64,000 nucleotides of DNA from Promethearchaeota archaeon (GTDB lineage Archaea; Asgardarchaeota; Lokiarchaeia; Sigyniarchaeales; SOKP01): positions 64,001 to 128,000 of the forward strand of contig JAHPZA010000002.1 in NCBI GenBank assembly GCA_019058445.1. The letters run 5' to 3'. Shown in pieces: positions 24,382 to 64,000 of this stretch. Position 1 is the first letter of the stretch. Each line of letters starts with the position of its first letter. The notes beneath the pieces are model-generated. The model ran no database searches. It worked only from the letters and a program-made list of their open reading frames with translations, and was not told the origin of the DNA. A program made the position numbers and the translations under genes.

Positions 24382-24549
24382 TCAGGGATATCTCTTATAT
24401 AAATCTTGGATGATGTCTTCCAGTTCTTTTATGGTTTTTCTTTCCCCATACGCTATTTTACCACATTCATCTTCTAAATTCATGCACGATTTAATATATG
24501 CTTTATTCATTATCGTGAGCATTACTTTCGTAAAGAATAGGAAGGGCAT
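24382..24549 (-). pseudogene. Diverged duplicate of the last 55 codons of the enoyl-CoA hydratase gene (25937-26101)
   Basis: 149/165 nt identical by hand alignment; reads MPFLFFTKVMLTIMNKAYIKSCMNLEDECGKIAYGERKTIKELEDIIQDLYKRYP*. Confidence 0.9.
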
Positions 24550-24575
24550 CTTTAATAAAAAAATGTAAAATTGTA

Positions 24576-25757
24576 TTAAGAAGCGATTCTTAAAAAGAAT
24601 TCTTTTGGAGGTGCTCCTTTCGACTTGGATATGAACATTCCTAACAATTGTTCCCTAAATTCCTCATCTTGTTCGGCAATTTCTAGCATTCTATTTAAAC
24701 TTCTTCCTTCATTCTCGTAAAAGAATTTCATCAATGAGCTTTTTAATTTGAAAGTTCTTGAGATCTCCTTAATATCGGGGTGAGTTTTATACTTTCTTAA
24801 AATGATTTTTGAATAATCCTCTTTTTCTAACGCATCAATCGCTATTTCTGCAGCCGCTTTACCTGAAGCAATTGCTGTATGAATACCTTCTCCATTTATT
24901 GGCGATATAAATCCTCCAACATCTCCAACAAGTAATAGATTATCATCATATAAACTTTTATCCAATATCCCAGTTACGGGAAATGGATAAGCTCCAGACC
25001 AAATTATTTTACATTTTGAAGCTTTTACATATTTTTGAATATTCGGATTTTTAAGAAATTCATTATACACAGTATGCAAATTATATTTAAGATTGTCTTC
25101 CGAAAAGGTGTAAACACCAATATTGAATCTGTTTTTACCTATTGGGAAGATCCATCCGTATCCTTTATAAGGTTTAAAATAAATATAGATAAGATTTTCA
25201 TTCAAATTATTCTCACCTTCCATAATTGCACATTTAGCATTTGCAATTTCTTCTATTTTCCATTTTTTTCTCAAACCGGATTTTATAGCTAATCTGGAGC
25301 TCATTCCTTCAGCAATAATAAAAATTTTTCCATAATACACTTTAGTTCCCTCTGGGCTTTTAGTTTTAATTCCTATCCTTTTTCCGTCCTTTAGAATAAA
25401 ATCGGTTGATATATTTTTATCAAAAAGTTTAGATCCAACATCTACGGCGGAATCTCTCAAAAAATTGTCAAATTCTAAACGATCAATAATTATAGAATAT
25501 TTTTGCTTCTCAACATAAGCTTCAATTTTGTGAAAGTCCGCACTATATAGTTCAATTCCCTTAATTAATGGAATATTTAATTTTCTTAATTCAGGATAAA
25601 AATTAAGTACTCGATAATTAAGAGCCCCACCACAAGGTTTCCTCCAGTTGGAATCTTTTTCAATTAAAGCAACATTATATCCGGCTTTAGCAAGGACCTC
25701 AGCACATTGAGAACCTGAAGGTCCTGCTCCAGAGATTACAACATCAAATTTGATTAT
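24576..25757 (-). CDS. Geranylgeranyl reductase family FAD-dependent oxidoreductase
   Basis: The frame stays open 99 codons upstream of the ORF-track start and encodes FDVVISGAGPSGS and KPCGG; GYGWIFP, VGDVGG and GEGI follow downstream. Confidence 0.88.
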   Translation of the reverse strand: MIKFDVVISGAGPSGSQCAEVLAKAGYNVALIEKDSNWRKPCGGALNYRVLNFYPELRKLNIPLIKGIELYSADFHKIEAYVEKQKYSIIIDRLEFDNFLRDSAVDVGSKLFDKNISTDFILKDGKRIGIKTKSPEGTKVYYGKIFIIAEGMSSRLAIKSGLRKKWKIEEIANAKCAIMEGENNLNENLIYIYFKPYKGYGWIFPIGKNRFNIGVYTFSEDNLKYNLHTVYNEFLKNPNIQKYVKASKCKIIWSGAYPFPVTGILDKSLYDDNLLLVGDVGGFISPINGEGIHTAIASGKAAAEIAIDALEKEDYSKIILRKYKTHPDIKEISRTFKLKSSLMKFFYENEGRSLNRMLEIAEQDEEFREQLLGMFISKSKGAPPKEFFLRIAS

Positions 25758-25936
25758 TGGTTCACCTCATAAAATCTTAGATATTTAATATTTATAGTTT
25801 GAATTATTTAAATCTACACGAGAAAACTTTGTAATAATTATCGCCCTTTATTATTAAAGCATTATGATCATTCTGAAAAAACTTCAAATACAATTAGATT
25901 GTATTTCTTTGAATTGAAAAAAAAAAAGTTCTGTTA

Positions 25937-26725
25937 TTAGGGGTATCTCTTATATAAATCTTGGATGATGTCTTCCAGCTGTTTCATGGTTTTTCTTTCC
26001 CCGTAGGCTATTTTTCCACATTCGTCTTCTAAATCCATGCATGATTTGATATATGCTTTATTCATAATCATAAGCATTACTTTCGTAAAGAATAGGAAAG
26101 GGGTTTGAATTTTACAAAGATCTTTCGCAAATGATAGTGTGTCCTCATCAAGCGTTTCCTTTGGAAATATCCTTGTGGGGAAATTTATGTTCTTTAATTC
26201 TTCTAAACCGATATTATCACCAGTAAAAAGGAATTTCTTCGCATTACTAAATCCAAAAGCTAATAAAGGCATGAGGGTTGCGCCAGTTTGCGGGAAAGCG
26301 GAGATAACAAGCTCTGGCAATCTAATATAGAGTTCTTCTTTCGGTCTGTCAGCAAAAATCCTTAAATCCGATGCTACCATCATCAATACTCCGAAGCCAA
26401 CAGCAATCCCTTGACATTGGGTAATGACTGTTTTTTTCATGAGCATTATTTTCTCATTCACTTTCCTACCCCAGATTGTTACTTGCTTTACATTCTCAGG
26501 ATCTCCTTGAACTTGCTTTAGATCATAACCCGCAGAAAAGAATCTATCCCCTGTACTCCTAATAATTATACACTTCACTTTCTCATCTTCATCTGCTTTG
26601 CTTAACGTGTCATAGAGTGTCATTAACATTTCAATAGTAAAAGCATGTGCCTTTTCCGGCCGATTAATTGTGATAATAGCAACACATCTTTTTACTTCAT
26701 ATAAAAGATTTTCTTGATCGCTCAT
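25937..26725 (-). CDS. Enoyl-CoA hydratase/isomerase (crotonase) family protein
   Basis: ITINRPEKAHA, FFSAGYDL, GIAVGFG and LPE motifs. Confidence 0.88.
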   Translation of the reverse strand: MSDQENLLYEVKRCVAIITINRPEKAHAFTIEMLMTLYDTLSKADEDEKVKCIIIRSTGDRFFSAGYDLKQVQGDPENVKQVTIWGRKVNEKIMLMKKTVITQCQGIAVGFGVLMMVASDLRIFADRPKEELYIRLPELVISAFPQTGATLMPLLAFGFSNAKKFLFTGDNIGLEELKNINFPTRIFPKETLDEDTLSFAKDLCKIQTPFLFFTKVMLMIMNKAYIKSCMDLEDECGKIAYGERKTMKQLEDIIQDLYKRYP

Positions 26726-26944
26726 ATTTATCTAAACTTAAAATGAAATTTAAAATGTTTTAAAATTCAACCCAAGAAATAATAATACTAACCTTAGATG
26801 ATAAATTTTCGATGATTTATTGGACTCTTAATAATAAAATATCTAATTTACTTCTTGATTATTGATATTAAAAATTTAACAATTACTATTAAAAAAAATC
26901 ATTTCAATTAATTATTGTACTAAAACATCATTTACTTTTCTAAA

Positions 26945-29830
26945 ATGCCCTTGGAAGATTTAAATTTTAAGGATCTTACGCCTATGATGCGTCATTGGTT
27001 CTCAGTGAAAAAGCAGTATCCTGAACATTTACTTGCTTATCGAATGGGAGATTTTTATGAGTTCTTTTATGATGATGCTGAACGGGTTTCTAATTTATTA
27101 GGCATAACCTTAACAAAACGGAAAATAGGTAATGATAGTTACCCTCTCGCGGGAATACCATATCATGCCGGGCATTATTTAAATAATTTAGTTAATATGG
27201 GTCAAACGGTAGTTATTGTTGATCAACTTGAGGACCCATCTACCGTAAAGGGGCGTATCGTGAAACGGGGAGTCGTGAGAATCTTATCTCCTGGAACTAT
27301 AACAGAATATGATATGCTACGGCCCCATGAAAATAATTATATCGCTTCGATGGTTAAGGAAAGAAATGGATATGGCATCGCGTTGGCGGACTTATCTACG
27401 GGTGAATTTGTTGCGACTGAATTTTCTTCAAAAGAGGAGGATCCTTTAGAGAAATTACTTAGTTTATTTGCTCAATATGATCCAGTAGAATTAATAGTGC
27501 CTTCAGAAATAAAAAAGGACGAGAAGCTTTTTCTCCTTATCACAGATTTAACAGAGGCCATAATAAAGCATTACAATGATTATGTGTTTACTTATGAGGA
27601 GGCCTATAGTTTAATTACACGCCACTTTAATCTTTCGAACTTAAAAAGCTTTGACCTAGAAGATTCTCATATGGCAGTTCAAGCCGCTGGGGGCCTTCTA
27701 GCCTTTTTAAAGGAAACTCAAAGGGATATCATTCCCAACATTTTTAAAATAACTCTGCTAAAAGAAGAGAATACTTTACATTTAGATTATATTACTCAAA
27801 GAAATCTTGAATTAATTACTTCTTTATGGGAAAAAGGAAAAGATATCACTTTATATTCCATTTTCAATCACACCCATACACCAATGGGTGCACGCTTATT
27901 AAAAAAATTTATTTTGCAACCATTAATCAGTACTGAGGAAATCAATGAACGGCTTAATATTGTACAAAAATTCAAGGATGATATTTTTCTTAGATCTGAT
28001 TTAAGAGAAGAATTAAAAATTATTGGTGATCTCGAGAGATTTATTAATCGAGTGAATTACTCTAAGAGGACTAACGCACGAGATTTGCTCAATATAAAAA
28101 ATTCCTTAGAAAAAATCCCAAAAATCAAAGAATTATTAGAAAAAGCAGAAATTCCTGAAATCTCTAAATTTGTTGCAAAAATTAATCTTTTTGATGATGT
28201 GAGAGAATTAATAGATAATGCAATCAAGGAAGAACCTTCTCAAAAAATAACAGAAGGCAATATCATTAAAGATGAATATAATGATAAGGTTGATGAATTA
28301 AGAGATCTTCTCCATAATGGAAAAAAGTACCTTTTAGATTATGAGGAGGAACAAAAAAAAAGATGGAACCTCACTTCAGGGCTCAAGGTAGGACATAATA
28401 ACATTCTTGGTTATTATATCCAGATTACCCAGAGAACTCTCCAACTAATTCCGACTATCCCCGAAGATTATATTGAAAGATCCACCTTAAAAAATGCGAA
28501 GAGGTTTACTACTGAAAAATTAAAAGAACTTGAGGAAAAAATAGTTACCGCAGAAGAAAAAATTAATGATTTAGAATACGAGCTATTTTGTGAGGTAAGA
28601 GATAAGGTTGTTCAAAAGACTGTCGATATTTTAGAAACTGCGAAAAATATTGCCATTATTGATGTGTTAGCTTGTTTTGCAGAAATTTCTGAAAGAAATA
28701 ATTATTGTCGTCCAATTATCAACAATGAAAATAAATTAATTATAAAAGAAGGTCGTCATCCTGTCGTTGAGCAAATAAATCTTGCGGAGCAATTTATTCC
28801 TAATGATTGCTATTTAGATCCTGAAAGTGATCAACTTCTAATAATAACTGGGCCGAATATGGCTGGTAAAAGCACTTATTTAAGGCAAGTTGCGTTAATA
28901 TGTTTAATCGCCCAAATGGGATGTTTTGTTCCAGCGAAATCTGCAACTCTTGGTGTAATAGATCATATTTTTACGCGTATTGGTGCCTCAGATGATCTTG
29001 CTAGGAAACTGAGCACATTCATGATTGAAATGACCGAGACGGCTAAAATATTGAATTATGCGACTCCGAAAAGCCTTATAATAATTGATGAGCTTGGTCG
29101 CGGTACAAGTACCAGTGATGGACAGAGCATTGCAATGGCAACATTAGAAAAATTACATGATTTAAAGACAAAAACTCTTTTTAGTACCCATTATCATCAA
29201 TTGACTGAAATAAAATTGCCTCGGGTAAAGAATTATCATCTCGATATAATTGAGAATGAGGATGGGAGCATTAATTTTGTAAGAAAACTCAGAGAAGGGA
29301 GTACTGATAAATCCTATGGGATTCATGTTGCGAAATTAGCGGGTATACCTGATGACGTAATAATAAGAGCGTTTGAAATTTTAGAGCAAATAGAAGCGAA
29401 AGATCCATTTAAAACCACTGTAAGGGAAAATGGAAACGGGACGAATTCGGGGAAAATTTATGATAAGATGATAAGTGGGAAGAAAAAAGAACTCGAAAGG
29501 CTAAATTCTGAATTAAAAGGGATTAAGGCAGAACTTAGCAAATATGATGAAGATTTAAGAAAAAAAGAAAAGGAATTAGATGTGAAAAAAGTAGAAGTAA
29601 CAGAATTAAAAGAACAACTTGAAAAAACTCAAACTATAACTCTTAAGAAGAAAAAGTATGTACAAACTACATTTTTTAAACCAGTTGTGAAGAAAGAGAC
29701 GATAATGGATAAAGATCTTGAAAATTTATTAGATATAATTAAGGAAATAGATATCAATTCAATTACGCCTATAGATGCTATGAAAAAATTGAGTGAAATC
29801 AAGGAAAAGTTAGGGGAGTTGAATTCATGA
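26945..29830 (+). CDS. mutS: DNA mismatch repair protein MutS (MutS1)
   Basis: TPMM, RMGDFYE, TGPNMAGKST, DELGRGT and STHYH motifs. Confidence 0.97.
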   Translation: MPLEDLNFKDLTPMMRHWFSVKKQYPEHLLAYRMGDFYEFFYDDAERVSNLLGITLTKRKIGNDSYPLAGIPYHAGHYLNNLVNMGQTVVIVDQLEDPSTVKGRIVKRGVVRILSPGTITEYDMLRPHENNYIASMVKERNGYGIALADLSTGEFVATEFSSKEEDPLEKLLSLFAQYDPVELIVPSEIKKDEKLFLLITDLTEAIIKHYNDYVFTYEEAYSLITRHFNLSNLKSFDLEDSHMAVQAAGGLLAFLKETQRDIIPNIFKITLLKEENTLHLDYITQRNLELITSLWEKGKDITLYSIFNHTHTPMGARLLKKFILQPLISTEEINERLNIVQKFKDDIFLRSDLREELKIIGDLERFINRVNYSKRTNARDLLNIKNSLEKIPKIKELLEKAEIPEISKFVAKINLFDDVRELIDNAIKEEPSQKITEGNIIKDEYNDKVDELRDLLHNGKKYLLDYEEEQKKRWNLTSGLKVGHNNILGYYIQITQRTLQLIPTIPEDYIERSTLKNAKRFTTEKLKELEEKIVTAEEKINDLEYELFCEVRDKVVQKTVDILETAKNIAIIDVLACFAEISERNNYCRPIINNENKLIIKEGRHPVVEQINLAEQFIPNDCYLDPESDQLLIITGPNMAGKSTYLRQVALICLIAQMGCFVPAKSATLGVIDHIFTRIGASDDLARKLSTFMIEMTETAKILNYATPKSLIIIDELGRGTSTSDGQSIAMATLEKLHDLKTKTLFSTHYHQLTEIKLPRVKNYHLDIIENEDGSINFVRKLREGSTDKSYGIHVAKLAGIPDDVIIRAFEILEQIEAKDPFKTTVRENGNGTNSGKIYDKMISGKKKELERLNSELKGIKAELSKYDEDLRKKEKELDVKKVEVTELKEQLEKTQTITLKKKKYVQTTFFKPVVKKETIMDKDLENLLDIIKEIDINSITPIDAMKKLSEIKEKLGELNS

Positions 29831-30742: not shown

Positions 30743-30949
30743 TACTCATCAATAAAGGATTATTGGAAAAATAATTAGGAAGTTAAACTATAAAGTAATT
30801 TTTTCATTTTAAAGTAAATTAAAAACTAGTAGAGTAAAATTTATTTTATCATTAATAGAGTATTCATTTAAATTTGAGTTCATAAATATGATTTATAACT
30901 GTAACAAATCAAAATTTTCCATTTTAATCGTAATTTGAATTGAAAGAAA

Positions 30950-33742: not shown

Positions 33743-33744
33743 GG

Positions 33745-37153: not shown

Positions 37154-37804
37154 TCAGTTCTTTTTGATAATTTTATTTCCCTTTTCGATTCCAAGATGCA
37201 ATGCTCGAATATTATCGTCCGGATCTCTTAACCATTCTTTAATGACTTCTTCATAATGTTTAATATCAATAAACGGAATTTTGCCTGTTGGAATCGCAAA
37301 GCCTAACATTATTATGTTTACCTGTTGGTTTCTGTTAAACTCTTTGAGCGATAGTTCGGTGGCATTCATGGTATAGACTTCTTCAGTATAACCCTTTAAT
37401 ATCTCTTTTATTTTTTCTAAGGAAGGGTATTGATCTAAATCAGCAGTGATTAAAATGGGAGGAATTGTACGCTCATTCAATACAAAGGTAGTTTTATTTG
37501 ACGCAAAAATACCTCGTCTCAAGGATTCCACGGGTTCAATACAAATATATAAGTCAGCATCCCCATAACAAATTAAGGAAGAGTTCAGGTTTTTCTTTGG
37601 ATCATCAGTGGCCTTTTTTTGATATCTTGTGTGGCTAATTATTGCTCCTTCGCGTTGAGCTAATCCATGTTGCTCTGCTCCAAGTATTATATCAACACCA
37701 GCTTTTTGCGCCGCAAATTCGATCAATCTTTTTAATGATATAACCCCTTGTCCCGCTGTGCCCGCAATGACCACATTTATGATATCAGTTTCTTTAAATT
37801 TCAT
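37154..37804 (-). CDS. iorB: Indolepyruvate:ferredoxin oxidoreductase beta subunit
   Basis: AGTAGQGVI, EQHGLAQREG, EPVESLR and NIIMLG. Confidence 0.9.
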   Translation of the reverse strand: MKFKETDIINVVIAGTAGQGVISLKRLIEFAAQKAGVDIILGAEQHGLAQREGAIISHTRYQKKATDDPKKNLNSSLICYGDADLYICIEPVESLRRGIFASNKTTFVLNERTIPPILITADLDQYPSLEKIKEILKGYTEEVYTMNATELSLKEFNRNQQVNIIMLGFAIPTGKIPFIDIKHYEEVIKEWLRDPDDNIRALHLGIEKGNKIIKKN

Positions 37805-37893: not shown

Positions 37894-38967
37894 TTACGTT
37901 TCTCTCATAATTGTTTCATAAAGTTCTTTATTATTTTTTGGTATATTTATTTCATCTTGTTTTTTAGTGAGAGAGATCGCTTCATTTGGACAAATTATTA
38001 CACAATTACCACATCCAATGCATCTTTTCAAATTAATTGTTGCTATTTTATTTCTTAGTTTTATTGCATTTACTTCACATTGTTTTAAACAAGCGCGACA
38101 ACCCTCACATAATTCAGCATTTACTGTAGCATAATAACTATTTGTCCAAAATTTTGTTGGATTAGGAATTAATTTTTGCATAGATAAAACTCCACAACAG
38201 CATCCACAACATGAGCAAACAAATTCTGGTTCTTTTGAGTTTGAAATTTGAAGAACTAAACCATCTTCTTGATTCTTTTTTAAGATTTGAAGTGCTTCTT
38301 CTTTAGTGATTTGCTTTCCTAAACCTCTTCTTAACCATCTCTCCGCAATTTCATTAAAAACAAGGCATATATCTAATCGATCTGTTTTTTGACAAGGTCT
38401 ACCATTTATTTTTGCAGTTTTTTTACAAACGCAATCTAATAGGACAATGGGTCCTTCTAGATTCTTAATAATTGCTTTCAAATCATCATAATTGCCAACT
38501 AAATGTTCAGGTTCTACACTGTATTCAACAGGAATTGTGCGCATTTGAGGGATTTTTGAATTTACTAATCTCAAGGGAAATTGAGATTCTAACATATAAT
38601 CTATTCCCAGTTTTATATATTCAGGGGTGCGATTATAATTTACAGATTCGTCTAATCCTATAACTAATGGTAATAGTCTATAAAACATTATACCATCTCG
38701 TAATTTCCAGCCAATGATTCCTTTATTCACCATATTTTCTAAAATATTATGTAAATTGGTCTTAGTGTATTCTTCTTTCAAATGTTCAAAAATCTCTTCT
38801 ATATTTTGCTCTTTATAACTTAACTTCAATGCAACTTTAGCCTCTTCTGGTTGAAAAAAGTATTTTAATAAAGAGATATCCGAACCAGTAGTCGTGGGTG
38901 GAAATCCTACAGGTTGATTGTCTAAATGCTCTTGTAATTTGTGATAAATTTTATCTTCTAAACTCAT
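37894..38967 (-). CDS. Cys-rich 4Fe-4S dicluster protein with N-terminal wHTH-like region
   Basis: CVC, CSCCGCCC, CEGCRAC..C and CIGCGNCV.ICP. Confidence 0.85.
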   Translation of the reverse strand: MSLEDKIYHKLQEHLDNQPVGFPPTTTGSDISLLKYFFQPEEAKVALKLSYKEQNIEEIFEHLKEEYTKTNLHNILENMVNKGIIGWKLRDGIMFYRLLPLVIGLDESVNYNRTPEYIKLGIDYMLESQFPLRLVNSKIPQMRTIPVEYSVEPEHLVGNYDDLKAIIKNLEGPIVLLDCVCKKTAKINGRPCQKTDRLDICLVFNEIAERWLRRGLGKQITKEEALQILKKNQEDGLVLQISNSKEPEFVCSCCGCCCGVLSMQKLIPNPTKFWTNSYYATVNAELCEGCRACLKQCEVNAIKLRNKIATINLKRCIGCGNCVIICPNEAISLTKKQDEINIPKNNKELYETIMRET

Positions 38968-39009: not shown

Positions 39010-39097
39010 AAATTCAACAATCCTATTTAAGTTACGACTCCTTTGCCAGAGGTAACTGCAATTACTACGCTTTTTATATCATTTTTTTAAATTTCGC
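39010..39097 (-). pseudogene. Decayed copy of the iorB 5' end overlapping the iorA stop codon
   Basis: Reads (A)KFK/NDIKSVVIAVTSGKGVVT*IGL/EF versus iorB MKFKETDIINVVIAGTAGQGVISLKRLIEF. Confidence 0.8.
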
Positions 39098-41042
39098 GAA
39101 AAGGAACCTCTGTTGCTAATGCATGTATTACGGATTTGTGAATTGCTCCATTTGGGCAGATTTGATAACAAACGCCACATCGTATACATCTATCCTCATC
39201 AATCTGCATCGTCTCTCTTCCGTCAATCTCTGTTCTCCTTATAGCAGGACAGCTAAGTATTCTACTACATTCATGGCAAACTTGACAGCCTGAGATATAA
39301 TAGGTGATTTCTTGTACTTTCTGCCCTTGCGCTTCAAGATCTCTGATCTGACTCATTCTCCATCTATGAGCTTGAAGTCCACATTCTCGTTTAAGAATTA
39401 TAACTTTTAATCCTTTTTCTTGAAGTGCCTCCTCAATGGATTTTGTCAATTTTTTAGGGTTATATGAATCTTCAATTCGAAGCCAGGGTACTCCTAACGC
39501 TTTGCAAATGTTTTCAATTGAGAAGCCTCGATTAATTAAGTAACGAAGTACATCATCTTGGTGACCAGTCATTGCAGTCCAAGAATTCTCGAAAATGATG
39601 AGCAACACATTAGAATTATAACCGACTGCTTCTGCCAAGGGTGCCATACCCGTATGAAAAAAGGTGGAATCGCCAATCATAGCAACTATTTTTTGATCTG
39701 ATTTGGTCGACATGCCTATGGCAGCACTTATTCCCCCTGACATGCATATTACGAGATCACTACATTCTTGCGGAGGGAAAAACGACATTACATAGCATCC
39801 AATATCTCCACAAATCACGGTATTTTCTAGCTGATTTGTGGCTTTTAATATGGAATAGAGTGTAGCTCGTTCGGGACAGCCAGCACAGAAAGTCGGAAAC
39901 CTAGCCGGAACAATCTCCTTATAAGAATTGAAATATTCGATTGCGTTCGTCATCTGTTCGCTCGGTGTTTTATCAAAAATTTTCGCTAAACTAGTAGCGA
40001 TTAATCCAGTGGAATATTCGTTATATTTTGGGAAATATTCTTGACCGATCATTTGAACATTCAATTTGTTATGATGAGCGATTTCCGACACTTTTACTTC
40101 TAAAAATGGTTCTAATTCTTCAATAATAATGACTTTTTCAAGGGAATTCAAGAAATTCGAGATCTCTTCATAATTTAAAGGATAAATCATCCCCAACTTT
40201 AAAACTGGTACATCATCAAGTCCCAATTGGTCCAATGCTTCCATGGTATAGCCAAAAGGCATTCCACTGGTAATGATTCCAATTTTATTTTCTCCCGGAA
40301 TTATTTTATTTACACCAAGTTCTAGTATGATTTCTCGAATTTTTTCAATTCTTTCATATAATCGTACGTGGTTATTTATGGCGTGAGGAGGGAGTGAATT
40401 AAACTTAGGAATGTTTCGGATAAATTCTCCTTTTGCTTTCCCCCTCTTTATTGGTCCTAATTCTACATAACCTCGGGAATGAGCGCTTCTTGTAGAGGTT
40501 CGAACTTCAAATACGGTATCATACTTTTCGGAAAGTTCAAATGCTAGTTTGGTGAAATCTTTACATTCTTGAGGTGTATGGGGTTCAAAACAAGGGAGAT
40601 GGAGCATCCAGGTGTAAAATCGTTCATTTTGCTCTTGATGAGAGCCTAAACTGCCCGGATCAGCTCCCACCAATATCACCATTGCACCAGGATTTGGGCC
40701 ATTTAAAGCAATCACGCTTAAGGCATCACTTGCTACATTTAATCCGACATGTTTCATTGGATTTAAACTTCTACATCCGGTCCAGGCAGCACCAGCACAG
40801 GCAGAAGTTGCAACCGCCTCATTTACCGCCCAATGATGTACCAAATACTCTTTTGCTTCAGGATTTTCTCTTAAGATTTGATGAAAATATTCTCCAATGT
40901 CGCTGGTGGGAGTGCCAGGATATTGAGACGCATATGATACCCCAGCCTCAAGGCATCCCCGTACTACAGCTTCATTTCCAAGCATTAATACCTTTCCTTT
41001 TTCGTCAGAAAAACGAGTATCTTTTATTGGCATGTGAATCAT
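39087..41042 (-). CDS. iorA: Indolepyruvate:ferredoxin oxidoreductase alpha subunit
   Basis: LGNEA, YPGTP, MKHVGLNVA, FCAGCP, GDIGCY, IGDSTFFH and a C-terminal ferredoxin domain. Confidence 0.93.
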   Translation of the reverse strand: MIHMPIKDTRFSDEKGKVLMLGNEAVVRGCLEAGVSYASQYPGTPTSDIGEYFHQILRENPEAKEYLVHHWAVNEAVATSACAGAAWTGCRSLNPMKHVGLNVASDALSVIALNGPNPGAMVILVGADPGSLGSHQEQNERFYTWMLHLPCFEPHTPQECKDFTKLAFELSEKYDTVFEVRTSTRSAHSRGYVELGPIKRGKAKGEFIRNIPKFNSLPPHAINNHVRLYERIEKIREIILELGVNKIIPGENKIGIITSGMPFGYTMEALDQLGLDDVPVLKLGMIYPLNYEEISNFLNSLEKVIIIEELEPFLEVKVSEIAHHNKLNVQMIGQEYFPKYNEYSTGLIATSLAKIFDKTPSEQMTNAIEYFNSYKEIVPARFPTFCAGCPERATLYSILKATNQLENTVICGDIGCYVMSFFPPQECSDLVICMSGGISAAIGMSTKSDQKIVAMIGDSTFFHTGMAPLAEAVGYNSNVLLIIFENSWTAMTGHQDDVLRYLINRGFSIENICKALGVPWLRIEDSYNPKKLTKSIEEALQEKGLKVIILKRECGLQAHRWRMSQIRDLEAQGQKVQEITYYISGCQVCHECSRILSCPAIRRTEIDGRETMQIDEDRCIRCGVCYQICPNGAIHKSVIHALATEVPFREI

Positions 41043-41192: not shown

Positions 41193-42338
41193 CTAAAATG
41201 CAGGTTTCTTATCCGGTTTGAACTCACTAATACTATCTAGTATGAGCTTATTTAAATTCAGACACGCAAGATCTACTAATTTTGAATAAGGCTCCTCAAG
41301 AATCTTCGCGACCCCTTCTGGAGTTCCATCCCAAATAGGATTTTTTTCCCGAGCAATGATGGGCCTTAATTCTAACTTATGATTATCGGGTAACCCCACT
41401 CTCACAAAATAAACACTCTCATAATGTCGATGCAGACCTTTGCCGAGTCCACCCCATTGTTTTTTTCCTAATTGGTATGTCTCTATCCACCCCAGATCAA
41501 GAGCGATTTCAGGTTTAATGCTTATAGTTTCGCTTGTATCAGAGGGCTTATAATCGAATGATAAGATATTCCACACATTTAACGTCCATTGGGTTTTTAA
41601 TTCTTTTAAAATAATATTGGTAAATTTTTTATAACGATCAATAAAATCCGTAGAATCTTCTTTTCCTACAACCACGGGAACGCTGTATCTCCTTGGGATA
41701 AAACTACACCCTGAGGGACATTTATACTGCCAAGGACCATTCTTTTTTGCGCGCCACTTGTTTTTTTTAAATACATATGAATTATAGAATTTGGGAGCTA
41801 ATCTTTCGGCAATTTTCTCTTTAAGATTCAGTTTTTCAGGCATCGTCTCTTCATGCCATTCTCCTTGCCAATTATCTTCATCAATAATTAGACTAAACCA
41901 ACGCCACCCTCCAATTTGCCTCTTTTTAAATGAGCCTCCTGAATACCCCGGCGCATTTCCTAGAGAAGGACCAGGAAATTGCTCTTTTAAACAGTCTGCT
42001 TTATACAGACCAAAATCATTGGCATCTGATATAGAAACGATTGGTAAATATCTGCTAAAGATCGGTTCAAAAATAGCCCACATTCTTTGGGCCATTCCTT
42101 GAAAAAATGACATGTAGTCGGGATTGTCATACCCTAAGAGCGGTGGTTTGTGCCAACCAAGAATCATTATATTATCTCTTGGATTACAAATAAAATTCCA
42201 CAGCGCAACTTTATCTGGTTTACTCGCTTCTCTGACGATTTTTTTATTAACAGTAGCCTCTATAGAGCAATGTTGTGAAAATTTTTTCTCTTTATCTCTT
42301 ATTAGCTCATATCGTCCTAACCAAAGATATTTTCCCAA
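41193..42338 (-). CDS. Hypothetical Trp/Pro-rich soluble protein
   Basis: 381-aa ORF with TTG start; no family recognised. Confidence 0.7.
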   Translation of the reverse strand: MGKYLWLGRYELIRDKEKKFSQHCSIEATVNKKIVREASKPDKVALWNFICNPRDNIMILGWHKPPLLGYDNPDYMSFFQGMAQRMWAIFEPIFSRYLPIVSISDANDFGLYKADCLKEQFPGPSLGNAPGYSGGSFKKRQIGGWRWFSLIIDEDNWQGEWHEETMPEKLNLKEKIAERLAPKFYNSYVFKKNKWRAKKNGPWQYKCPSGCSFIPRRYSVPVVVGKEDSTDFIDRYKKFTNIILKELKTQWTLNVWNILSFDYKPSDTSETISIKPEIALDLGWIETYQLGKKQWGGLGKGLHRHYESVYFVRVGLPDNHKLELRPIIAREKNPIWDGTPEGVAKILEEPYSKLVDLACLNLNKLILDSISEFKPDKKPAF

Positions 42339-42466
42339 TTATTACAGCTCCGATTGAATTGTTATTACCTTCCCTAGATTATGAAAAAAGTAATTTAAAA
42401 ATGTATTGACAAGCAAAAGACTATAAATAAATCTTCTTAAAAAGAAAAAATAGTTAGATCCAATAA

Positions 42467-42508
42467 TCCGATTTCCTTATATTCCCGCTTGCTGACCCAT
42501 ATTTTGTA
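42467..42508 (-). pseudogene. Remnant of an actin 3' end (YKIWVSKREYKEIG)
   Basis: 31/42 nt identical to 42675-42716, with a 16-nt exact match ATTTCCTTATATTCCC; no in-frame start codon. Confidence 0.7.
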
Positions 42509-42607: not shown

Positions 42608-42647
42608 AAAAAAAATAAAATTTTATAAAAAACCCGTTTTTACGGGC
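42608..42647 (-). terminator. Hairpin plus U-tract terminator of the actin gene
   Basis: GCCCGT-AAAA-ACGGGT followed by T-tracts immediately after TAA. Confidence 0.7.
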
Positions 42648-43793
42648 TTAGAAGCATCTGTGGATGACCTGAGGTCCCATTTCCTTATATTCCCTGCGTG
42701 TAACCCACATTCTGTGGAAGGTCTTTAAGGAACTTAAAATTGATCCGCCGATCCATACGGAGTACATACGCTCTGGAGGAGCGATGATTTTTACATCAAC
42801 CGACTCTGGAATCTGTTCTTTAATTTCCTTGGTTAATCGTTCTTTTATACCAGGGAACATTGTAGAACCACCAGAAAGGACAATATTGCTGTAAAGGTCT
42901 CTTCGTAAGTCGACATCACACTCGGAAATAGCTCCTACAATTACGTCATCTAAAGGCTCTAATTCTTTACCAATTACGGATGGATTAAAGAAACACTCTG
43001 GAGCCAAGAATCTCTCGACACCTACATTGATGGTTTCCCCATCAGGAAGCATGTAGCTCTTTTCCATGCCTGCCACTTTCTTGGAAAGCATCATCTCCTT
43101 TTCAGGATCAATTGCGACATAGCAAAGTTTCTCTTTAATGTCTCTTACAATTTCTTTTTCCGCTGATGTGGTAAAGGAATAGCCTTTTTGCCTGAGTAGT
43201 CTCTGTAAATAGGTAGTAATATCTCGTCCTGCAAGGTCAATTCTTTGGATTGCGTGGCTTAACGCGAAGCCCTCGAAAATTGGGACTACGTGTGAAACAC
43301 CGTCCCCGATATCAATAACGCATCCAGTTGTACGACCTGAGGCATATAGGGATAATACTGCTTGCATTGCGACGTAAAGCGCTGGGGTGTTAAAGGTCTC
43401 GAACATAATTTCAGCCATTTTCTCTCGGTTTGGTCTTGGATTTAATGGAGCCTCAGTTAAGAGAACAGGATGTTCTGATGGATCAATACGAAGATCTGTG
43501 TAAAAAGTATAGTGCCAGATCTTTTCCATAGCGGTCCAATCTTCAATTATACCATGTTCTACTGGGAACATTAACTTCAAAACACCTTTGAGTTGCATGG
43601 CTTCTTCTCCGATATAGTATTCACGGGTATAATGTTCAACATCGGTCATTATTGATTCATATTTTGGATAACCAATTAAGGTTGGGAATACTGATCGAGG
43701 TTGATCTTCCCCAGCGAATCCATTTTTTGAGATTCCGGTACCATTGTCAACCACTAACGCTTTTGCATTTAAAAAGCTTTCTTCTTCTCCCAT
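42648..43793 (-). CDS. Actin (lokiactin-type)
   Basis: [58 protein letters not shown] and SVWIGGSIL. Confidence 0.97.
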
Positions 43794-48435: not shown

Positions 48436-49047
48436 CTATAATGGGACCGGTTCGAGTTCAGATTTAGCTCCACAATAATTACAGAATTTTAAATTCTTAA
48501 TATAAAATTCTTGACAGTTTTTACAATATTGAAGATTTTGTTTAATTATTTCCTTAGATACTTTTAAAAAAGCTTTTTCAACATTCTCACCGGTTTTTGA
48601 TGATGTTTCAAGCGGATCCCCTAAACAATCAAATTTCTGGCTTGCCTTTTTAGCTTCTTCGACAGATATTACTCTCTGATCTTCCAAATCAATTTTTGTA
48701 CCAATTAAAATCTTAATTACTTTTTCTATCGCATTTTTATCAATAATCTTAACCCAATTTTTAACATCATTTAAGGATTCTTTATCAGTTATATCGTACA
48801 AAATAAGTGCTGCTGAGGCACCATTGCAGTAAGAAGGAAATAGTGTTCTATATTTCTCTTCTCCACCAAAATCCCAGATATGTAATTCAATACTTATATT
48901 ATCATTTACTTTGACTTTTTTTCGTTTAAAAGCGACGCCTATGGTTGACATGGTTTTTTCGTGAAATACATTATCACAGAATCGAGCGATTAATGAGCTT
49001 TTGCCAACGTCTTTTGATCCAGCAAGAACAATTTTATATTTTAACAT
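48436..49047 (-). CDS. Rab-like small GTPase with C-terminal zinc ribbon
   Basis: GSKDVGKS, STIG, WDFGGE, TKID, ETSSKTG; CKNC...CNYCG. Confidence 0.9.
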   Translation of the reverse strand: MLKYKIVLAGSKDVGKSSLIARFCDNVFHEKTMSTIGVAFKRKKVKVNDNISIELHIWDFGGEEKYRTLFPSYCNGASAALILYDITDKESLNDVKNWVKIIDKNAIEKVIKILIGTKIDLEDQRVISVEEAKKASQKFDCLGDPLETSSKTGENVEKAFLKVSKEIIKQNLQYCKNCQEFYIKNLKFCNYCGAKSELEPVPL

Positions 49048-56361: not shown

Positions 56362-56952
56362 ATGATAAAATTTAAAGTCGTTATCGCTGGTCAGAAGGAT
56401 GTAGGCAAAACCTCACTTCTTCGCAGGTATGCGACAGGTAAGTTCGATACCTCTACTCTAAGCACTATTGGCGTAGATTTTGAAACGAAAAAAATTATGG
56501 TTGATGATGTAGAGATATTGCTCAATTTATGGGACTTTGCGGGGGAAAAAAAATTCAGAACATTATTTCCTTCTTATGTTTCCGGAGCTTCAGGAGCTTT
56601 GATATTGTATGATATTACGAGTAAAGATTCTCTTTATGACCTTGAAAGTTGGATGAAGGTTATCGATAATGTGGATAATCCCCCAAGGACCAGGATTTTA
56701 ATAGAACATAAAATAGATTTAGAAGACCAGAGGGAAGTTTCTACAAAAGAGGCTAAAAAATTTCATAAAAAATATAATTTTAAAGGAGATATTTTAGGCG
56801 CATCGGCAAAAACTGGAGAAAATGTAGAAAATGTATTTGTGACTTTAGGAACTGAGATTCTGAAAAATTCATTACGTAAGTGCCCTAATTGTGGAAAACA
56901 TTATCCACTTGAACTTAAGTTTTGCCAATATTGTGGAACCAAAACGTACTAA
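56362..56952 (+). CDS. Rab-like small GTPase with C-terminal zinc ribbon
   Basis: GQKDVGKT, STIGVDF, WDFAGE, HKID, SAKTG; CPNC...CQYCG. Confidence 0.9.
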   Translation: MIKFKVVIAGQKDVGKTSLLRRYATGKFDTSTLSTIGVDFETKKIMVDDVEILLNLWDFAGEKKFRTLFPSYVSGASGALILYDITSKDSLYDLESWMKVIDNVDNPPRTRILIEHKIDLEDQREVSTKEAKKFHKKYNFKGDILGASAKTGENVENVFVTLGTEILKNSLRKCPNCGKHYPLELKFCQYCGTKTY

Positions 56953-57121
56953 CTTTGGTTTACGTTTAATTTTAATTTTTAAGAGATTCAAGACTAGGTT
57001 TTGAAATATTAATTCCAATTAAATTCAAGTAAAACGGAAATTTTTAAAAAATAATATATCTTAAAGAGCATTTATTTATAAAAAAAAGAAATTTATTATC
57101 CCAAATTTAAAGGTTTTAAGA

Positions 57122-58186: not shown

Positions 58187-58703
58187 AATCGCTCAGAAGA
58201 AAAAATCCGAAATGGAAATTGCCAGCATTCAGTTTCAACGTCTTTTAAGATTTTCATTGATTTCTGGAATCCTTATTGTGTCCGGATTTATCGTGTATTA
58301 TATCTTAGTTCCTGAGGAAGGCTATGTAGGGTTTGGTATTTTAAATCATGATGAAAGAGCAGAAGATTATCCTACTACTGCTAAAGTGAACCAATCTATT
58401 GGATTTTATATAACTGTTGATAATGAGTTAGATCACGATTTTACTTTCAAGCTCATTATTTTATTAGGAAATGAGGATACAAAACTAACTCCCGACGAAG
58501 GTTCAAAACATGCGAATAAAACGTTTACGACAGATAAAGAAACGTTAAAGCCAACCAAGCATTGGATGTCTGATAAATTATATGTTTCGTTTCCGTATAA
58601 CGGAACGGATCAAATATTAATAGTAGAATTATGGAAATATAACGCAGATAATAGCAGAGAATTTTGGGATATATTATGGTTGCGAATTGATGTATATAGT
58701 TAA
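58176..58703 (+). CDS. DUF1616-like single-TM protein
   Basis: TM helix followed by F.IL.....A.DYP and C-terminal L.L.I.V. Confidence 0.6.
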   Translation: MNSKIAQKKKSEMEIASIQFQRLLRFSLISGILIVSGFIVYYILVPEEGYVGFGILNHDERAEDYPTTAKVNQSIGFYITVDNELDHDFTFKLIILLGNEDTKLTPDEGSKHANKTFTTDKETLKPTKHWMSDKLYVSFPYNGTDQILIVELWKYNADNSREFWDILWLRIDVYS

Positions 58704-60076: not shown

Positions 60077-61522
60077 TTAATTCAAACCTCCAACAGTAAC
60101 ATCTTCGACACGAATATATGGTCCTCCGTCGCATACTCTTACTCCTTGACCTCCCTTCCCACAAGTCCCGTCACTTAGCCCTATCTCATTACCAATCGCC
60201 GAGATTTTATTGAGAACCTCAAGAGTCATCCCTGATAAAGCTACATCTCTCATTAAATCAGTCTTTTCCCCATTTTTTATTAAATAAGAAATTTTACATT
60301 TAAATTGAAAGTTCCCAGTACTTGGATCCGTATAACCATATTGAAAATCTTCACAGAGAATTCCATTTTTCATATCTTTTATCATCTCGTCCAATTCCCA
60401 GTCTTTTGGTTCAAGAAACGTGATCCCCATACGCACTTGAGGCTTTGAAGTATTGGTTGATGCCCTCCCATGTCCATTAGGAGAGACTCCCATTCTTGAG
60501 GAAGTTTCTAAATTATGTAAATAATTCCGAAGAATCCCATTTTTAATTATTTCCGTCTTTTGAGAAGGGATACCCTCATCATCCACGAAATAACTTCCAT
60601 ATAATTCATAGGGTAAATTATATTTCTTTCCTTGCCCCATGGTTGGATCATCGATAATATTGACATCCACATTAGCAATTTGTGTACCAGTTTTCCCTTC
60701 TAAGATACTTTCTTTATTTAAGACCGTATCCGCTTCAATCGCATGGCCAAGAGCTTCATGAATTAAGACTCCGCAAAATTTTGGGTCCATTATAACTGTA
60801 AATTTCCCCCCTACGGGCGATTTTGCCTTAAGTAATTCGACTGCTTCCTTTGCAGATTTGGAACCTAATATTTTAGCTTGATCTGTTTCAATTATCTCAA
60901 ATCCTCCAAGTCCTCCCACGGAATTTACTGATCTTTGAAGTATTCCGTTTTCTTGGGCATAGACTAAGCTAAATAATCTTATTAATGATAATTCTTGGTA
61001 TATAACGCTCCCAAATGAATTGATAAATAAATTGCTCCCATAGCCATCCATATAAACGGTATGGGTGTTTTTAATTTTGGGTGAGTATTTTGAAGCAATT
61101 TTTTCTTGTTGCTTTACTTGATTAATTTTTTCCTCTACGTGAATATCTTCAATATTTTTCTTACTCTCCAGTTTGAAATTTGTTATTAGCGCGTCTCTTT
61201 CCTTTATTTTAAATTTATTTTTACATAAGGATTCAGACAATCGGGCTAATTTTATTGCTTGTTTAAAACCCTCTATCACAGATGGTTTAGAAATATCCTG
61301 CAACGTATTAAATCCCCAACCTCCATTTACAAACGTTCTGATGCCACAATCTATAAGTTCGTAAGAGGAAACTTCCTTGCTTTTTTGGTCTGTAAAATCA
61401 AGGCTTGTACCAATTCCCACTCCAGATTTGATATCCCAGTATTCGATCTTGTTAGCGGCGAGTTGGTTTAATTTTTCAATTAATTGGTCATCAAATAATT
61501 TTAATTCATCAACAACTTCCAT
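60077..61522 (-). CDS. tldD: TldD metalloprotease
   Basis: HEALGH, DDEG, NGHGR and CGKGGQ. Confidence 0.9.
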   Translation of the reverse strand: MEVVDELKLFDDQLIEKLNQLAANKIEYWDIKSGVGIGTSLDFTDQKSKEVSSYELIDCGIRTFVNGGWGFNTLQDISKPSVIEGFKQAIKLARLSESLCKNKFKIKERDALITNFKLESKKNIEDIHVEEKINQVKQQEKIASKYSPKIKNTHTVYMDGYGSNLFINSFGSVIYQELSLIRLFSLVYAQENGILQRSVNSVGGLGGFEIIETDQAKILGSKSAKEAVELLKAKSPVGGKFTVIMDPKFCGVLIHEALGHAIEADTVLNKESILEGKTGTQIANVDVNIIDDPTMGQGKKYNLPYELYGSYFVDDEGIPSQKTEIIKNGILRNYLHNLETSSRMGVSPNGHGRASTNTSKPQVRMGITFLEPKDWELDEMIKDMKNGILCEDFQYGYTDPSTGNFQFKCKISYLIKNGEKTDLMRDVALSGMTLEVLNKISAIGNEIGLSDGTCGKGGQGVRVCDGGPYIRVEDVTVGGLN

Positions 61523-61647
61523 TTTTCCACTTTTTTCTATTGATTTTATCTAAAGAAAAAAATAATGATATCTTTAAAAGTTTTAACAAAGAATCTTACT
61601 ATGCAAACTGCAACTTTTTTTTTCTACATTCTTTACAAGGAAGGAGT

Positions 61648-61921
61648 CTTAACCCATTTTATATTCTTTGTAGATTTTCCAAATTTAGGGGGATAATTTA
61701 AATTAGAAAATCTTCATTTTCACTAAAAACAGATTTAGTTTTGGGATGATAAAAAGCCATAGGTGTATTATAGCTAAATTATACTGTAAAATTTCCAATT
61801 CTAAAAGCTAAGGCATTTGAATTTTGAGTTTTACTATTTTACTATTTCCATAATACCATCTATTTAATGTGATGGAGTAATTGTTTTGGTGTTCAATTAA
61901 TTTCTCTACTTTTTCAATTCT
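61648..61921 (-). pseudogene. Decayed gene resembling an uncharacterised virus/phage protein family
   Basis: Removing an 8-nt tandem duplication (61831-61846) gives RWYYGNSKTQNSNALAFRIGNFTV*FSYNTPMAFYHPKTKSVFSEN; family resemblance is from memory only. Confidence 0.5.
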
Positions 61922-61983
61922 TGTTTTCTAATCTTGATTTAAGGTTTTTTAAGATTATTATAGCTGCTTGGCAATCTATTATA

Positions 61984-62364
61984 TTATTTGGGAACTCCTC
62001 CTGCTCCTAGTTCAGAAAATTTTTTCAGGGTTGCATTTATACCATCATCAACAAGGTGATGTTGCGATTCATCTCTAATCATAGATTTTAAACGCCTTTT
62101 TAGAATTTCATTCAGTTCTTTAGCCACTTCAACAGCATTAGATCCTCTAGCTTCAATAGTAAAATCCAAACCAGGGTGATTTTTGTTCCACTCATTTATA
62201 GACAATAAAATGAATCCAGCAATTAAGTCTTTACTCAAAGGTATGTATTGTGAAGCTAATTCAGCGTAAAATTTAGTATTTTCCGTTTTTTCGATGGTTA
62301 GTTCAAGTGCAGAAATTTCTTTTTTAGCTTTATCTAACTTAGATTTTGACCAATTTATTGACAT
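61984..62364 (-). CDS. Hypothetical protein
   Basis: 126-aa ORF; no recognised motif. Confidence 0.6.
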   Translation of the reverse strand: MSINWSKSKLDKAKKEISALELTIEKTENTKFYAELASQYIPLSKDLIAGFILLSINEWNKNHPGLDFTIEARGSNAVEVAKELNEILKRRLKSMIRDESQHHLVDDGINATLKKFSELGAGGVPK

Positions 62365-62412
62365 AACATATTAATTATAAAATTAGTATTTATATTTCTT
62401 TTGCATTAAATT

Positions 62413-62490
62413 CTATTCAACTTTCTTTATTGTTAGGAGAGATTCCATATTGATATGGTTCGAAAGATCTTCAAGTTGCTTTCTTTTTTT
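62413..62490 (-). pseudogene. Diverged copy of the 3' end of the zinc-ribbon gene ending at 63765
   Basis: KKRKQLEDLSNHIN versus KKRMHNEDLSKYIS; 33/42 nt identical, with an exact 15-mer TTCGAAAGATCTTCA at 62459 and 63808. Confidence 0.7.
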
Positions 62491-62653
62491 TTTCCAATTT
62501 AACAGTTTTTATTATATATAGGAGAAATTGACTTAATTTATTAAATAAATGATTTACTCTAAAGACGTTGTAGAAAGACAGATTAACTTTTTTATGTTTT
62601 TATTCAATAAATAAGTAATGGAATATAACAAAATAATTTATTAAAATTTTAAA

Positions 62654-63778
62654 ATGAAATTAAGCATTTATGGTACAGATTTTTTAATACTTATAGGAAA
62701 AGCTTTAGAAAGAGATGGGCATTGTGTTTTTTTTAATGAGTTTTCTCCTGATATTGATTTGATAATTATACAAAGTATGAAACAAATGTATAAGGTTTAT
62801 AGACTATTAAAAAGTATTAGAAAAAATAAAATCAAAATTATTAATTTTGTATTAGACATTCCTCCCTACAGATTGGAAAAAAGAAAAGGTCCAAGATCCT
62901 TAATTAGAACTGAAAATCAATTGTTATTTGATGACCAAAGAGCCAATAATACACTATTTAAGTATTTTCATCAAACTCTTTTTCATATTGGTGCCAAATA
63001 TTTATTGTTAAGTAAAATCTTAGGTTGTTTTTATTTAAATTCAATGAAAGGTAGTGGAATTTCTAAGTTTTTCTCAAGATTTATTCTGAAAATATTTAAT
63101 AAAACTTATATTAATAGAATATCATATCAAATATTTTATCGGAATTTTTTAAAAAAATCGGATTTGATTTTATGTGTATCAAAATATACTCAATATTGCC
63201 TCAAAAAATTCTTGAAACTTGATAGCAAATTATGCTATCAATGTGTTGATTCAGACTTCTTATTAAGTTTAGAATTACCATTTGAAAGTAAATATGACGC
63301 AATAAGCATAGGGAGGTTTGTTGATCGCAAGAGGCATGAGATATTTGTCAAAGCTGCTAAAAAATTAAGATTGAAAATATTAGTGATTGGAAGTCCAGAG
63401 GAACCATGGATCAAATTAGATTGTCCTCGTCATTATTTCCATAATATACATGATGTTTGGAGAGAATTATCAAAAGCACATATCTTCGTTGATTGCTCTA
63501 TATTTGAAGGTTTTGGAATGCCTCCGATTGAAGCAGCATATTTGAATAAAATTGTAATCGCATCAGATACATTTATTCACAGAGAAATTATAGGAGATTA
63601 TGCGCTCTATTTTAAAAAGGAAGATGTTGATGATTTAGTAGATAAAATACAAGTAGTTCGAAATAGGCATTATACTATTAACAAAAGGGAACTACAAAAA
63701 ATTAAGGAAAAATACTCTATTCAAGAAGCAAAAAAAAGATTATTAAATTATATTGAATCAGAATTTAAAATTTCTTAG
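62654..63778 (+). CDS. GT4 (GT-B) glycosyltransferase
   Basis: CVSKYT, IGRFVDRK, EGFGMPPIEA and VIASD. Confidence 0.88.
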   Translation: MKLSIYGTDFLILIGKALERDGHCVFFNEFSPDIDLIIIQSMKQMYKVYRLLKSIRKNKIKIINFVLDIPPYRLEKRKGPRSLIRTENQLLFDDQRANNTLFKYFHQTLFHIGAKYLLLSKILGCFYLNSMKGSGISKFFSRFILKIFNKTYINRISYQIFYRNFLKKSDLILCVSKYTQYCLKKFLKLDSKLCYQCVDSDFLLSLELPFESKYDAISIGRFVDRKRHEIFVKAAKKLRLKILVIGSPEEPWIKLDCPRHYFHNIHDVWRELSKAHIFVDCSIFEGFGMPPIEAAYLNKIVIASDTFIHREIIGDYALYFKKEDVDDLVDKIQVVRNRHYTINKRELQKIKEKYSIQEAKKRLLNYIESEFKIS

Positions 63779-64000
63779 TTAACTGACTAATATCACTACT
63801 AATGTATTTCGAAAGATCTTCATTATGCATTCTTTTTTTAAATTCCTTTAGAATCGAAATTGCATCTTCTATTGAGCATTGTTTAGAGAATTTTGTTGAT
63901 TTTTGAAATTGGAAAGATCTATTACATTTCACACACTTTTTTGTTTTAATAAATCTATTAGTGTAATGCCACATACCACAGTGATAGCATCTAAAGAAAT
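63765..64000 (-). CDS. Zinc-ribbon protein (DUF1922-like), 5'-truncated by the window edge
   Basis: The frame is open to the edge: FFRCYHCGMWHY...KTKKCVKC. Confidence 0.6.
   Translation of the reverse strand, partial: FFRCYHCGMWHYTNRFIKTKKCVKCNRSFQFQKSTKFSKQCSIEDAISILKEFKKRMHNEDLSKYISSDISQLTKKF

Follow-up and report, generated by a model that had tools for sequence, protein, structure and literature searches.

This report concerns displaced copies of gene ends in a 64,000-nt stretch of the genome of a Promethearchaeota archaeon (the window; positions 64001-128000 of contig C2 in assembly G000, or G000:C2:64001-128000). The assembly comprises 4.61 Mb in 10 contigs with N gaps, has a GC content of about 31% and reaches 92.6% completeness with 4.3% contamination; actin and Ras-family GTPases are among the Asgard hallmarks that it encodes. 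It was compared with 30 relatives within the same order, nine of which are congeneric (G003, G006, G007, G008 and G009 among them). The original prediction had described four loci in the window built on one plan, with an intact gene and a diverged copy of its end lying on either side of an unrelated gene or, at actin, of a terminator only. Hereafter the intact gene is called the anchor, the enclosed gene the cargo and the displaced copy the scar. This shared architecture is real: it is strong at the gene for enoyl-CoA hydratase (ECH), short at iorB and at a zinc-ribbon gene but backed there by congeners free of the cargo, and probable only at actin.

The intact ECH gene lies at positions 25937-26725 on the minus strand (Pfam ECH_1, 1e-31) and has orthologues of 97, 91 and 89% identity in G003, G008 and G007, respectively. 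Downstream of it on the same strand are the cargo, a geranylgeranyl-reductase-like (GGR) gene at about 24576-25754 (Pfam GGR_cat; frame open from 25754), and then the scar at 24385-24555, which consists of the last 57 codons of ECH and the stop codon (tblastn over 57 aa, 87.7% identity, E 1.9e-29). At the DNA level the copy extends over 163 nt with 91% identity, and the homology ends at the stop codon. The GGR gene is missing from the ECH locus of G003, G007 and G008, where the gene order is hydrolase, amidohydrolase, ECH, MutS, and the single ECH tail of these empty-site congeners aligns to both copies in G000. Downstream of the scar, the DNA is collinear with that of G003.

The original prediction also held that the displaced ECH end should be closer than the intact end to the nearest relative, and this is what the alignments gave. 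The scar is 96% identical to the G003 tail at the nucleotide level and the intact tail 90%, the two G000 copies being 90% identical to each other; sites specific to the intact copy, the scar and G003 number 14, 3 and 3. Four-taxon site counts, with G007 or G008 as the outgroup, favoured the grouping of the scar with G003 (5:0:1 and 3:0:0), and the branch leading to the intact end is about five times as long as that of the scar. A decaying pseudogene cannot be nearer to a relative than its constrained sister copy is; therefore, on these counts, the two ECH tails derive from different lineages, and it is the intact end of the gene that carries the foreign allele.

As regards the cargo itself, the GGR frame opens just past a TGA and encodes an FAD-binding GxGxxG motif near its start, with no ATG, GTG or TTG ahead of the motif (window 25740-25760, minus strand), and the sequence GAGGTGA stands a few bases 5' of ATA/ATC. 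Judging from this frame, GGR would either use a non-canonical start codon or be impossible to translate in full.

At the second locus the arrangement concerns a 5' end. The iorA-like gene for the alpha subunit of a 2-oxoacid:ferredoxin oxidoreductase (39087-41042, minus strand; Pfam TPP_enzyme_C, POR_N, Fer4) is followed by a remnant of the old iorB 5' end of about 88 nt (39010-39097, minus strand), which overlaps the last iorA codons and was recognised by alignment with the iorA/iorB junctions of G003, G008, G006 and G009. In the remnant the GTG start has become GCG and one nucleotide is deleted. The cargo, at 37894-38967 on the minus strand, encodes a 357-aa protein with a C-terminal 2x[4Fe-4S] domain (Pfam Fer4 families), and the intact iorB, of the POR gamma type, follows at 37154-37804 on the same strand (Pfam POR) with its own ATG and a GGAG upstream. 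In the four congeners named, iorA and iorB abut or overlap, the GTG start of iorB overlapping the iorA stop, and the Fer4 gene is absent. The duplicated iorB segment apparently takes in the last few codons of iorA, and the remnant shares some states with the end in G003, as judged by a comparison less formal than that for ECH. The N-terminus of the 357-aa Fer4 protein was also considered as the iorB 5' copy; it has no similarity to iorB, and the candidate was rejected in favour of the short stretch behind iorA.

The third locus lies at the edge of the window, where a DUF1922 zinc-ribbon gene (63765-64000, minus strand, continuing for 22 nt past the window; Pfam DUF1922) overlaps by its last 14 nt the end of a convergent cargo gene encoding a GT4-family glycosyltransferase (62654-63778, plus strand; Pfam Glycos_transf_1). 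Beyond the cargo, at 62418-62495 on the minus strand, we found the displaced old 3' end of the zinc-ribbon gene, about 78 nt long when aligned with the tails of G003 and G008. It extends beyond a 15-nt match to comprise the entire former tail including the stop codon, and the DNA downstream of it matches G008. TldD directly adjoins the DUF1922 gene in G003, and in G008 the order is TldD, a 126-aa open reading frame (ORF) and the zinc-ribbon gene; a GT4 gene between TldD and the zinc-ribbon gene is thus found in G000 only, as compared with these two genomes. In a comparison likewise less formal than that for ECH, some states of the remnant are common with the end of the gene in G003, and four-taxon counts resolve no grouping.

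At the fourth locus, the actin gene (42648-43793, minus strand; Pfam Actin, 1.5e-132) is followed directly after its stop codon by a terminator-like hairpin with a T-run (42627-42647, minus strand), read from the sequence and conserved in G003, then by AT-rich DNA that is also found downstream of the G003 actin, and then by a fragment of about 40 nt (42464-42502, minus strand). The fragment lies about 145 nt downstream of actin, is in frame, contains a 16-nt exact core (GGGAATATAAGGAAAT) and encodes the peptide IWVSKREYKEIG, which matches 12 residues of the actin end. Its DNA score of 17.5 falls in the noise zone of the genome-wide control described below, so that on score alone it is indistinguishable from chance. 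We nevertheless rate it as a probable, not a proven, displaced gene end, because the homology to G003 downstream of actin stops exactly at this copy.

Between actin and iorA, a 381-aa ORF (41193-42338, minus strand) was considered as a diverged actin paralogue and rejected, as it has neither actin similarity nor a Pfam match. It is present in G008, and G003 keeps only its 5' end together with about 6.5 kb of other DNA; this intergenic block varies within the genus. The actin gene of G009 has in its 3' end two extra stretches of 31 and 29 nt, 60 nt in total (G009:C2 about 176925-177145, minus strand), each capable of forming a hairpin (TTCAAGCG/CGCTTGAA and AAGTTGG/CCAACTT) and both absent from the actins of G000, G003 and G006. 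From their sequence they could be tiny in-frame insertions or mini-introns in a conserved gene.

The frequency of such scars in the whole genome was estimated with two screens. In the protein screen, 3,909 called ORFs were searched by tblastn against the genome and intergenic matches within 6 kb of the query gene were kept, which left 41 intergenic near-matches; about 19 of these are C-terminal ends lying downstream on the same strand and five are N-terminal ends lying upstream on the same strand, the reverse layout being almost nil. In the DNA scan, the 150-nt ends of each gene were compared by seed-and-extend with the gene's own flanks in four arrangements, which served as an internal control, with a score of at least 20 required. 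Matches inside called genes were excluded, since the signal was otherwise drowned by tandem paralogues. In intergenic DNA, 3' ends recurred downstream on the same strand 15 times, as against 0, 0 and 2 in the control arrangements, and 5' ends recurred upstream on the same strand 12 times, as against 1, 3 and 0. The scars are therefore far more frequent than in the control arrangements, as the original prediction required of a systematic process, and they have a clear polarity. Taken together, the screens gave about 35 loci at the thresholds used, a rate of about 1% of the genes. The true number is likely two to three times higher, because of the four loci in the window the screens caught just ECH, with actin reached at noise level only and the other two missed.

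Across these loci the scars have a sharp start immediately behind the cargo. At about six of the 19 C-terminal loci, the two youngest-looking ones included, the homology stops no more than 2 nt from the stop codon; at the others it extends 7-90 nt further. Identity between scar and intact end ranges from 71 to 98%, and the older scars are damaged, as exemplified by a nonsense codon in the scar of leuS. The anchors are often highly conserved genes, among them those for LeuRS, adenylate kinase (Adk), IlvD, AroA, a P-type ATPase, actin, ECH and IorB. At each of the eight loci compared (ECH, iorB, zinc-ribbon, leuS, P-type ATPase, DedA, diphthamide-synthase-like and Adk), at least one congener has an empty site with a single tail, to which both G000 copies can be aligned. 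At C4:284048, an amidohydrolase with a TetR/MFS/corrinoid cassette, the relatives lack the entire region.

The cargos comprise one to five genes and are of many kinds: GGR, Fer4 proteins, GT4s, PAS histidine kinases, MFS transporters with TetR, corrinoid/UroD proteins, radical-SAM enzymes, methyltransferases, a glucoamylase, a methylmalonyl-CoA mutase, and LRR-TIR and SIR2-TPR proteins. Restriction-modification systems and toxin or immunity genes are not among these types. Most cargo genes are without a close paralogue in the genome and therefore are not products of local copy-and-paste. In agreement with the earlier claim that these insertions come without mobile-element genes, recombinases and transposases are absent from the 50 cargo proteins checked, and neither of the two tyrosine recombinases (PF00589) of the genome lies inside a cargo. 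No core or junction motif shared between loci was seen by eye, and the mismatches are spread through the repeats.

One of the two PF00589 genes, at C6:27026-27523, adjoins a gene (28049-28390) whose 3' end recurs 18 nt downstream, and the region C6:27026-28390 may be a conventional integrase-borne element.

Some genes have been struck more than once. The 3' end of Adk is a repeated landing site, with two displaced tails in G000 (C6:1005438-1007786), two or three in G003 and two in G007; their start points all differ, and from this comparison we regard the arrays as independent, repeated events on one gene. A nested case was found at IlvD and a PD40-repeat gene. At DedA, the cargo is common to G000 and G008 with 86-88% identity and both flanks are only 72-73% identical; the scar in G008 begins at the same nucleotide as that in G000 and resembles G008's own tail, so that each lineage has its own scar. 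A cargo more alike than its flanks, next to scars proper to each lineage, indicates that the cassette was moved between the lineages or refreshed by recombination, with the tails as arms.

We consider it somewhat probable that the scars are the footprints of an additive integration that is independent of recombinases and guided by homology. The recombinase-free part is the firmer one: a site-specific recombinase is unlikely because about 35 different targets would be needed, none is encoded in the cargo and the loci have no common core. The guidance by homology is probable, and we infer homology as the anchor, as well as the form of the incoming DNA and the route of its uptake. In the incoming DNA, a copy of a conserved gene's end would be linked to a single accessory gene or to a few of them, and the host's own recombination machinery would integrate this DNA into the chromosome. 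One junction would form within the homologous gene end and the other by an illegitimate join inside or just past the gene, leaving an intact gene, the cargo and then a displaced, useless copy of the gene end that would decay. If the incoming DNA were linear, this would amount to homology-facilitated illegitimate recombination (HFIR). Alternatively, a circle of tail plus cargo might be integrated by a single crossover; recombination between the tail copies on either side of a cargo already inserted could generate such circles, and a cassette once formed could thereby spread among relatives. The circle model is attractive because two tail copies can generate a circle and because under it the scar may be of donor or of resident origin, which would fit ECH, where it is the scar that seems misplaced. 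From the sequences at hand, one-sided homology with an illegitimate join and single-crossover integration of a circle cannot be told apart. A Campbell-type crossover would be expected to show as a switch along the repeat from scar-specific to intact-specific sites; the site profile was flat at ECH and only weakly graded at leuS.

In addition to the ECH topology, changes specific to the intact end about equal or exceed those specific to the scar at ECH, leuS and DedA (14/3, 28/30 and 12/12), more than is expected for a constrained sister copy. Often, too, the homology goes no further than the stop codon, the point up to which genomes with different neighbouring genes would be expected to be orthologous.

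Several observations weigh against this reading. The intact ECH is evenly 90% identical to G003 over its full length, with no visible crossover point, and the ECH scar (96%) is nearer to G003 than its flanks are (82-90%), none of which is predicted by a simple import into a resident gene by one-sided homology. A donor arrangement of ECH with this GGR was not found in the 30 relatives or in metagenome contigs; the best GGR homologues are 62-66% identical and none stands beside ECH, and the exact GGR/scar junction is absent from the metagenome contigs searched. The pattern at leuS is a mosaic, and the four-taxon topology favours no grouping there, as at the zinc-ribbon gene. The two copies at the P-type ATPase are identical over 176 nt, with four mismatches confined to the first 20 nt, and neither agrees with G003; at the diphthamide-synthase-like gene the copies are sisters (9-10 informative sites versus 4-6). 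The HFIR expectation that the intact end comes from the donor and the displaced one from the recipient is thus seen at ECH, equivocal at leuS, DedA and the zinc-ribbon gene, and not borne out at the diphthamide-synthase-like and P-type ATPase loci. The claim of homology-anchored import from related cells consequently holds in part only: the ECH scar that is nearer to a relative and the cargo-free congeners speak for it, and the identical or sister copies at the latter two loci speak against it. Those copies fit an in-situ duplication, a near-identical or conspecific donor, or later gene conversion. The mixture of patterns across loci as to which copy is native may reflect donors that differ in relatedness, perhaps with gene conversion at a later stage, or the action of two separate processes.

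The explanation that survives best beside homology-guided integration is insertion with an in-situ duplication of a long target, which is a serious rival for the loci with sister copies and, as an account of the scars in general, possible rather than probable. Non-homologous foreign DNA would be joined illegitimately at two staggered points, for example of sister or multiple chromosome copies, leaving 40-350 nt of resident DNA on both sides; only events spanning a gene end would spare the gene and survive, and a later exchange of alleles would make some copies look foreign. Repeats that are single-copy in the empty-site genomes, as in Furuta et al. 2010 (PMC2853133), and the lack of mobility genes are both in line with it, as is the relation between the copies at the P-type ATPase and diphthamide-synthase-like loci, where the two copies are nearer to each other than to the empty site, which is not so at ECH. 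The iorA/iorB segment, too, spans a two-gene junction and leaves each gene one working copy. The rival is at odds with the topology at ECH, in which the scar groups with G003 and the intact end is the outlier on a branch about five times longer; with the roughly six of 19 loci at which the homology ends no more than 2 nt from the stop codon, an outcome not predicted by random staggered joints; and with genes such as Adk that were struck repeatedly in different lineages.

Alternatively, gene ends might be cut, and the insertion of tail plus cargo driven, by a dedicated trans-acting system, whether a homing-type nuclease like that of the mobile endonuclease ORFs (mORFs) of fungal mitochondria or an unrecognised recombinase. 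The layout is the same as that of the mORF gene hybrids, in which the native displaced tail is likewise closest to that of a relative (PMC3630166), and one cargo, a 691-aa LAGLIDADG_3 protein at G000 C6:704205-706280, stands behind a metallo-beta-lactamase-fold gene with a displaced tail. This protein is the only nuclease-like one among the 50 cargo proteins, however, and none of the four window loci has a nuclease or recombinase as cargo; about 35 target genes would moreover require as many specificities, and no shared junction motif was seen by eye. We consider such a system improbable.

Local tandem duplication of a segment followed by loss or divergence, with no imported DNA, could cover a subset of the loci and is still less probable as a general explanation. 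Two places in G000 resemble it: at C2:47022-52600, outside the window, a 79% identical paralogue of the first cargo gene lies directly beyond the scar, and at C4:131239 there is a partial tandem copy 63 nt downstream. The second copy of the cargo that it predicts after the scar was not seen at the four window loci; for most cargo genes the genome contains no close paralogue, and congeners lacking the cargo exist for each of the eight loci tested. Finally, the serial joining of strain haplotypes in a metagenome-assembled genome, for which a fragmented assembly with N gaps, incomplete and partly contaminated, might give cause, is very unlikely as the source of the scars, because the copies are mostly far below strain-level identity, the leuS scar and the iorB remnant carry pseudogene damage (a stop codon in the former, a lost start and a frameshift in the latter), and the same layout occurs inside single contigs of independent assemblies (a cargo-scar junction in G008 C642, and Adk with two displaced tails in G003 C227).

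Several known systems leave comparable traces. Integron cassettes differ in that here the loci are dispersed, no tyrosine recombinase lies nearby and the borders are copies of the neighbouring gene's end and not a shared attC-like repeat. In Escherichia coli, phage 21 and e14 integrate into the 3' end of icd by means of an integrase, and a substitute end keeps the gene intact. As in our loci, the insert supplies the substitute end, and the old one stays behind as a direct repeat that has diverged; integration of the icd type requires a recombinase in the element and an identical core, neither of which was found here. The mORFs have formed gene hybrids in atp6 of Allomyces and in atp6, atp9, cox2 and nad3 of Glomus (PMC3630166), with the order gene, foreign C-terminal end plus cargo, and native displaced end, the native end being closest to the relative, as at ECH. 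There the cargo is the homing endonuclease that drives the event, whereas none of our four window loci has a nuclease as cargo, and a nuclease-like protein occurs once among the 50 cargo proteins checked.

In bacteria, restriction-modification genes are the described case of insertion with long target duplication (Nobusato et al. 2000; Furuta, Abe & Kobayashi 2010, PMC2853133). Furuta et al. reported direct repeats of 30 to more than 400 bp that are single-copy at the empty site, with no mobility genes, and no archaeal case passed their screen. Our loci are alike in that the flanking repeats are single-copy in empty-site genomes (eight loci), no mobility genes are present and the insertions were found by comparison of genomes. 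They differ in that the repeats of Furuta et al. are nearly identical, whereas ours are 71-98% identical with one ECH copy of another lineage, and our cargo is not of the restriction-modification type.

Another close likeness is to bacterial displacement arrays. For the displacement of C-termini at Rhs loci, a circular intermediate of tail plus cargo and a single homologous crossover were proposed (Jackson et al. 2009, PMC2935791), and for the sequential displacement of effector-immunity modules of the type VI secretion system (T6SS) in Vibrio cholerae, HFIR was proposed (Kirchberger et al. 2017, PMC5361080). In both, as here, there is an intact gene with displaced 3' fragments in the same orientation, arrays stem from successive events and no integrase is present. 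The bacterial cases involve polymorphic toxin genes with variable tips and immunity genes; the anchors here are housekeeping or metabolic genes of an archaeal host, the new tail is an allele of the same protein end (88% aa identity at ECH) and the cargo consists of unrelated accessory genes. HFIR itself is attributed to naturally transformable bacteria (de Vries & Wackernagel 2002; Prudhomme et al. 2002, both as cited in PMC5361080), in which foreign DNA is added with no recombinase, through homology on one side and an illegitimate join on the other, as proposed here; the difference is that in bacteria this was shown experimentally, whereas here it is read from scars alone.

Thus, this kind of scar is known already, and what differs here is the cargo of ordinary genes, the housekeeping anchors, the genome-wide scale and the host. 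The original prediction that the route is undescribed stands for Asgard archaea, and archaea in general, as far as the literature was searched; it does not stand more widely, given the precedents in bacteria and fungal mitochondria (PMC2935791, PMC5361080, PMC2853133, PMC3630166). An archaeal description of such scars was not found in the literature searched, which is no proof of absence, and a paper on Asgard mobile elements (PMC8813620) makes no mention of them. The mechanism is probably the same as in the bacterial displacement arrays, and we therefore see in it the extension of a known process and not a new principle.

Asgard genomes are large and rich in acquired genes, and little is known of how these genes are taken up; the emphasis in publications has been on viruses, integrase-bearing elements and transposons. 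If homology-guided integration is true, conserved genes would be the landing sites of a recombinase-free route, and this route would account for many small insertions specific to strains or species. We further put forward, as a speculation, that Asgard archaea exchange accessory genes as "tail-tagged cassettes", in which the tail copies recombine, release a circle and re-integrate it at the same conserved gene in related genomes; actin, Adk and leuS would then be the addresses of a recombinase-free, self-perpetuating sharing, to which a considerable part of the accessory genes gained by these large genomes might be due. In practice, scars can be used to flag recently gained genes and, through their decay, to date insertions; they also explain contig breaks in related assemblies and may alert annotators to orphan gene fragments.

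Two further observations were made in G000. In a dense patch at C6:648800-656000, the tail of the gene at 650124-650828 recurs at 653711, that of 652613-653551 (minus strand) recurs at 649297, and the 5' end of 650909-651208 recurs at 655128, so that several overlapping events appear to have taken place in one 6-kb stretch. Within the window, two paralogous small GTPases of the Ras/Rab-like kind share 54% identity and are encoded 7 kb from each other on opposite strands (48436-49047, minus strand, and 56362-56952, plus strand), and the latter terminates in a zinc-ribbon (DUF7575).

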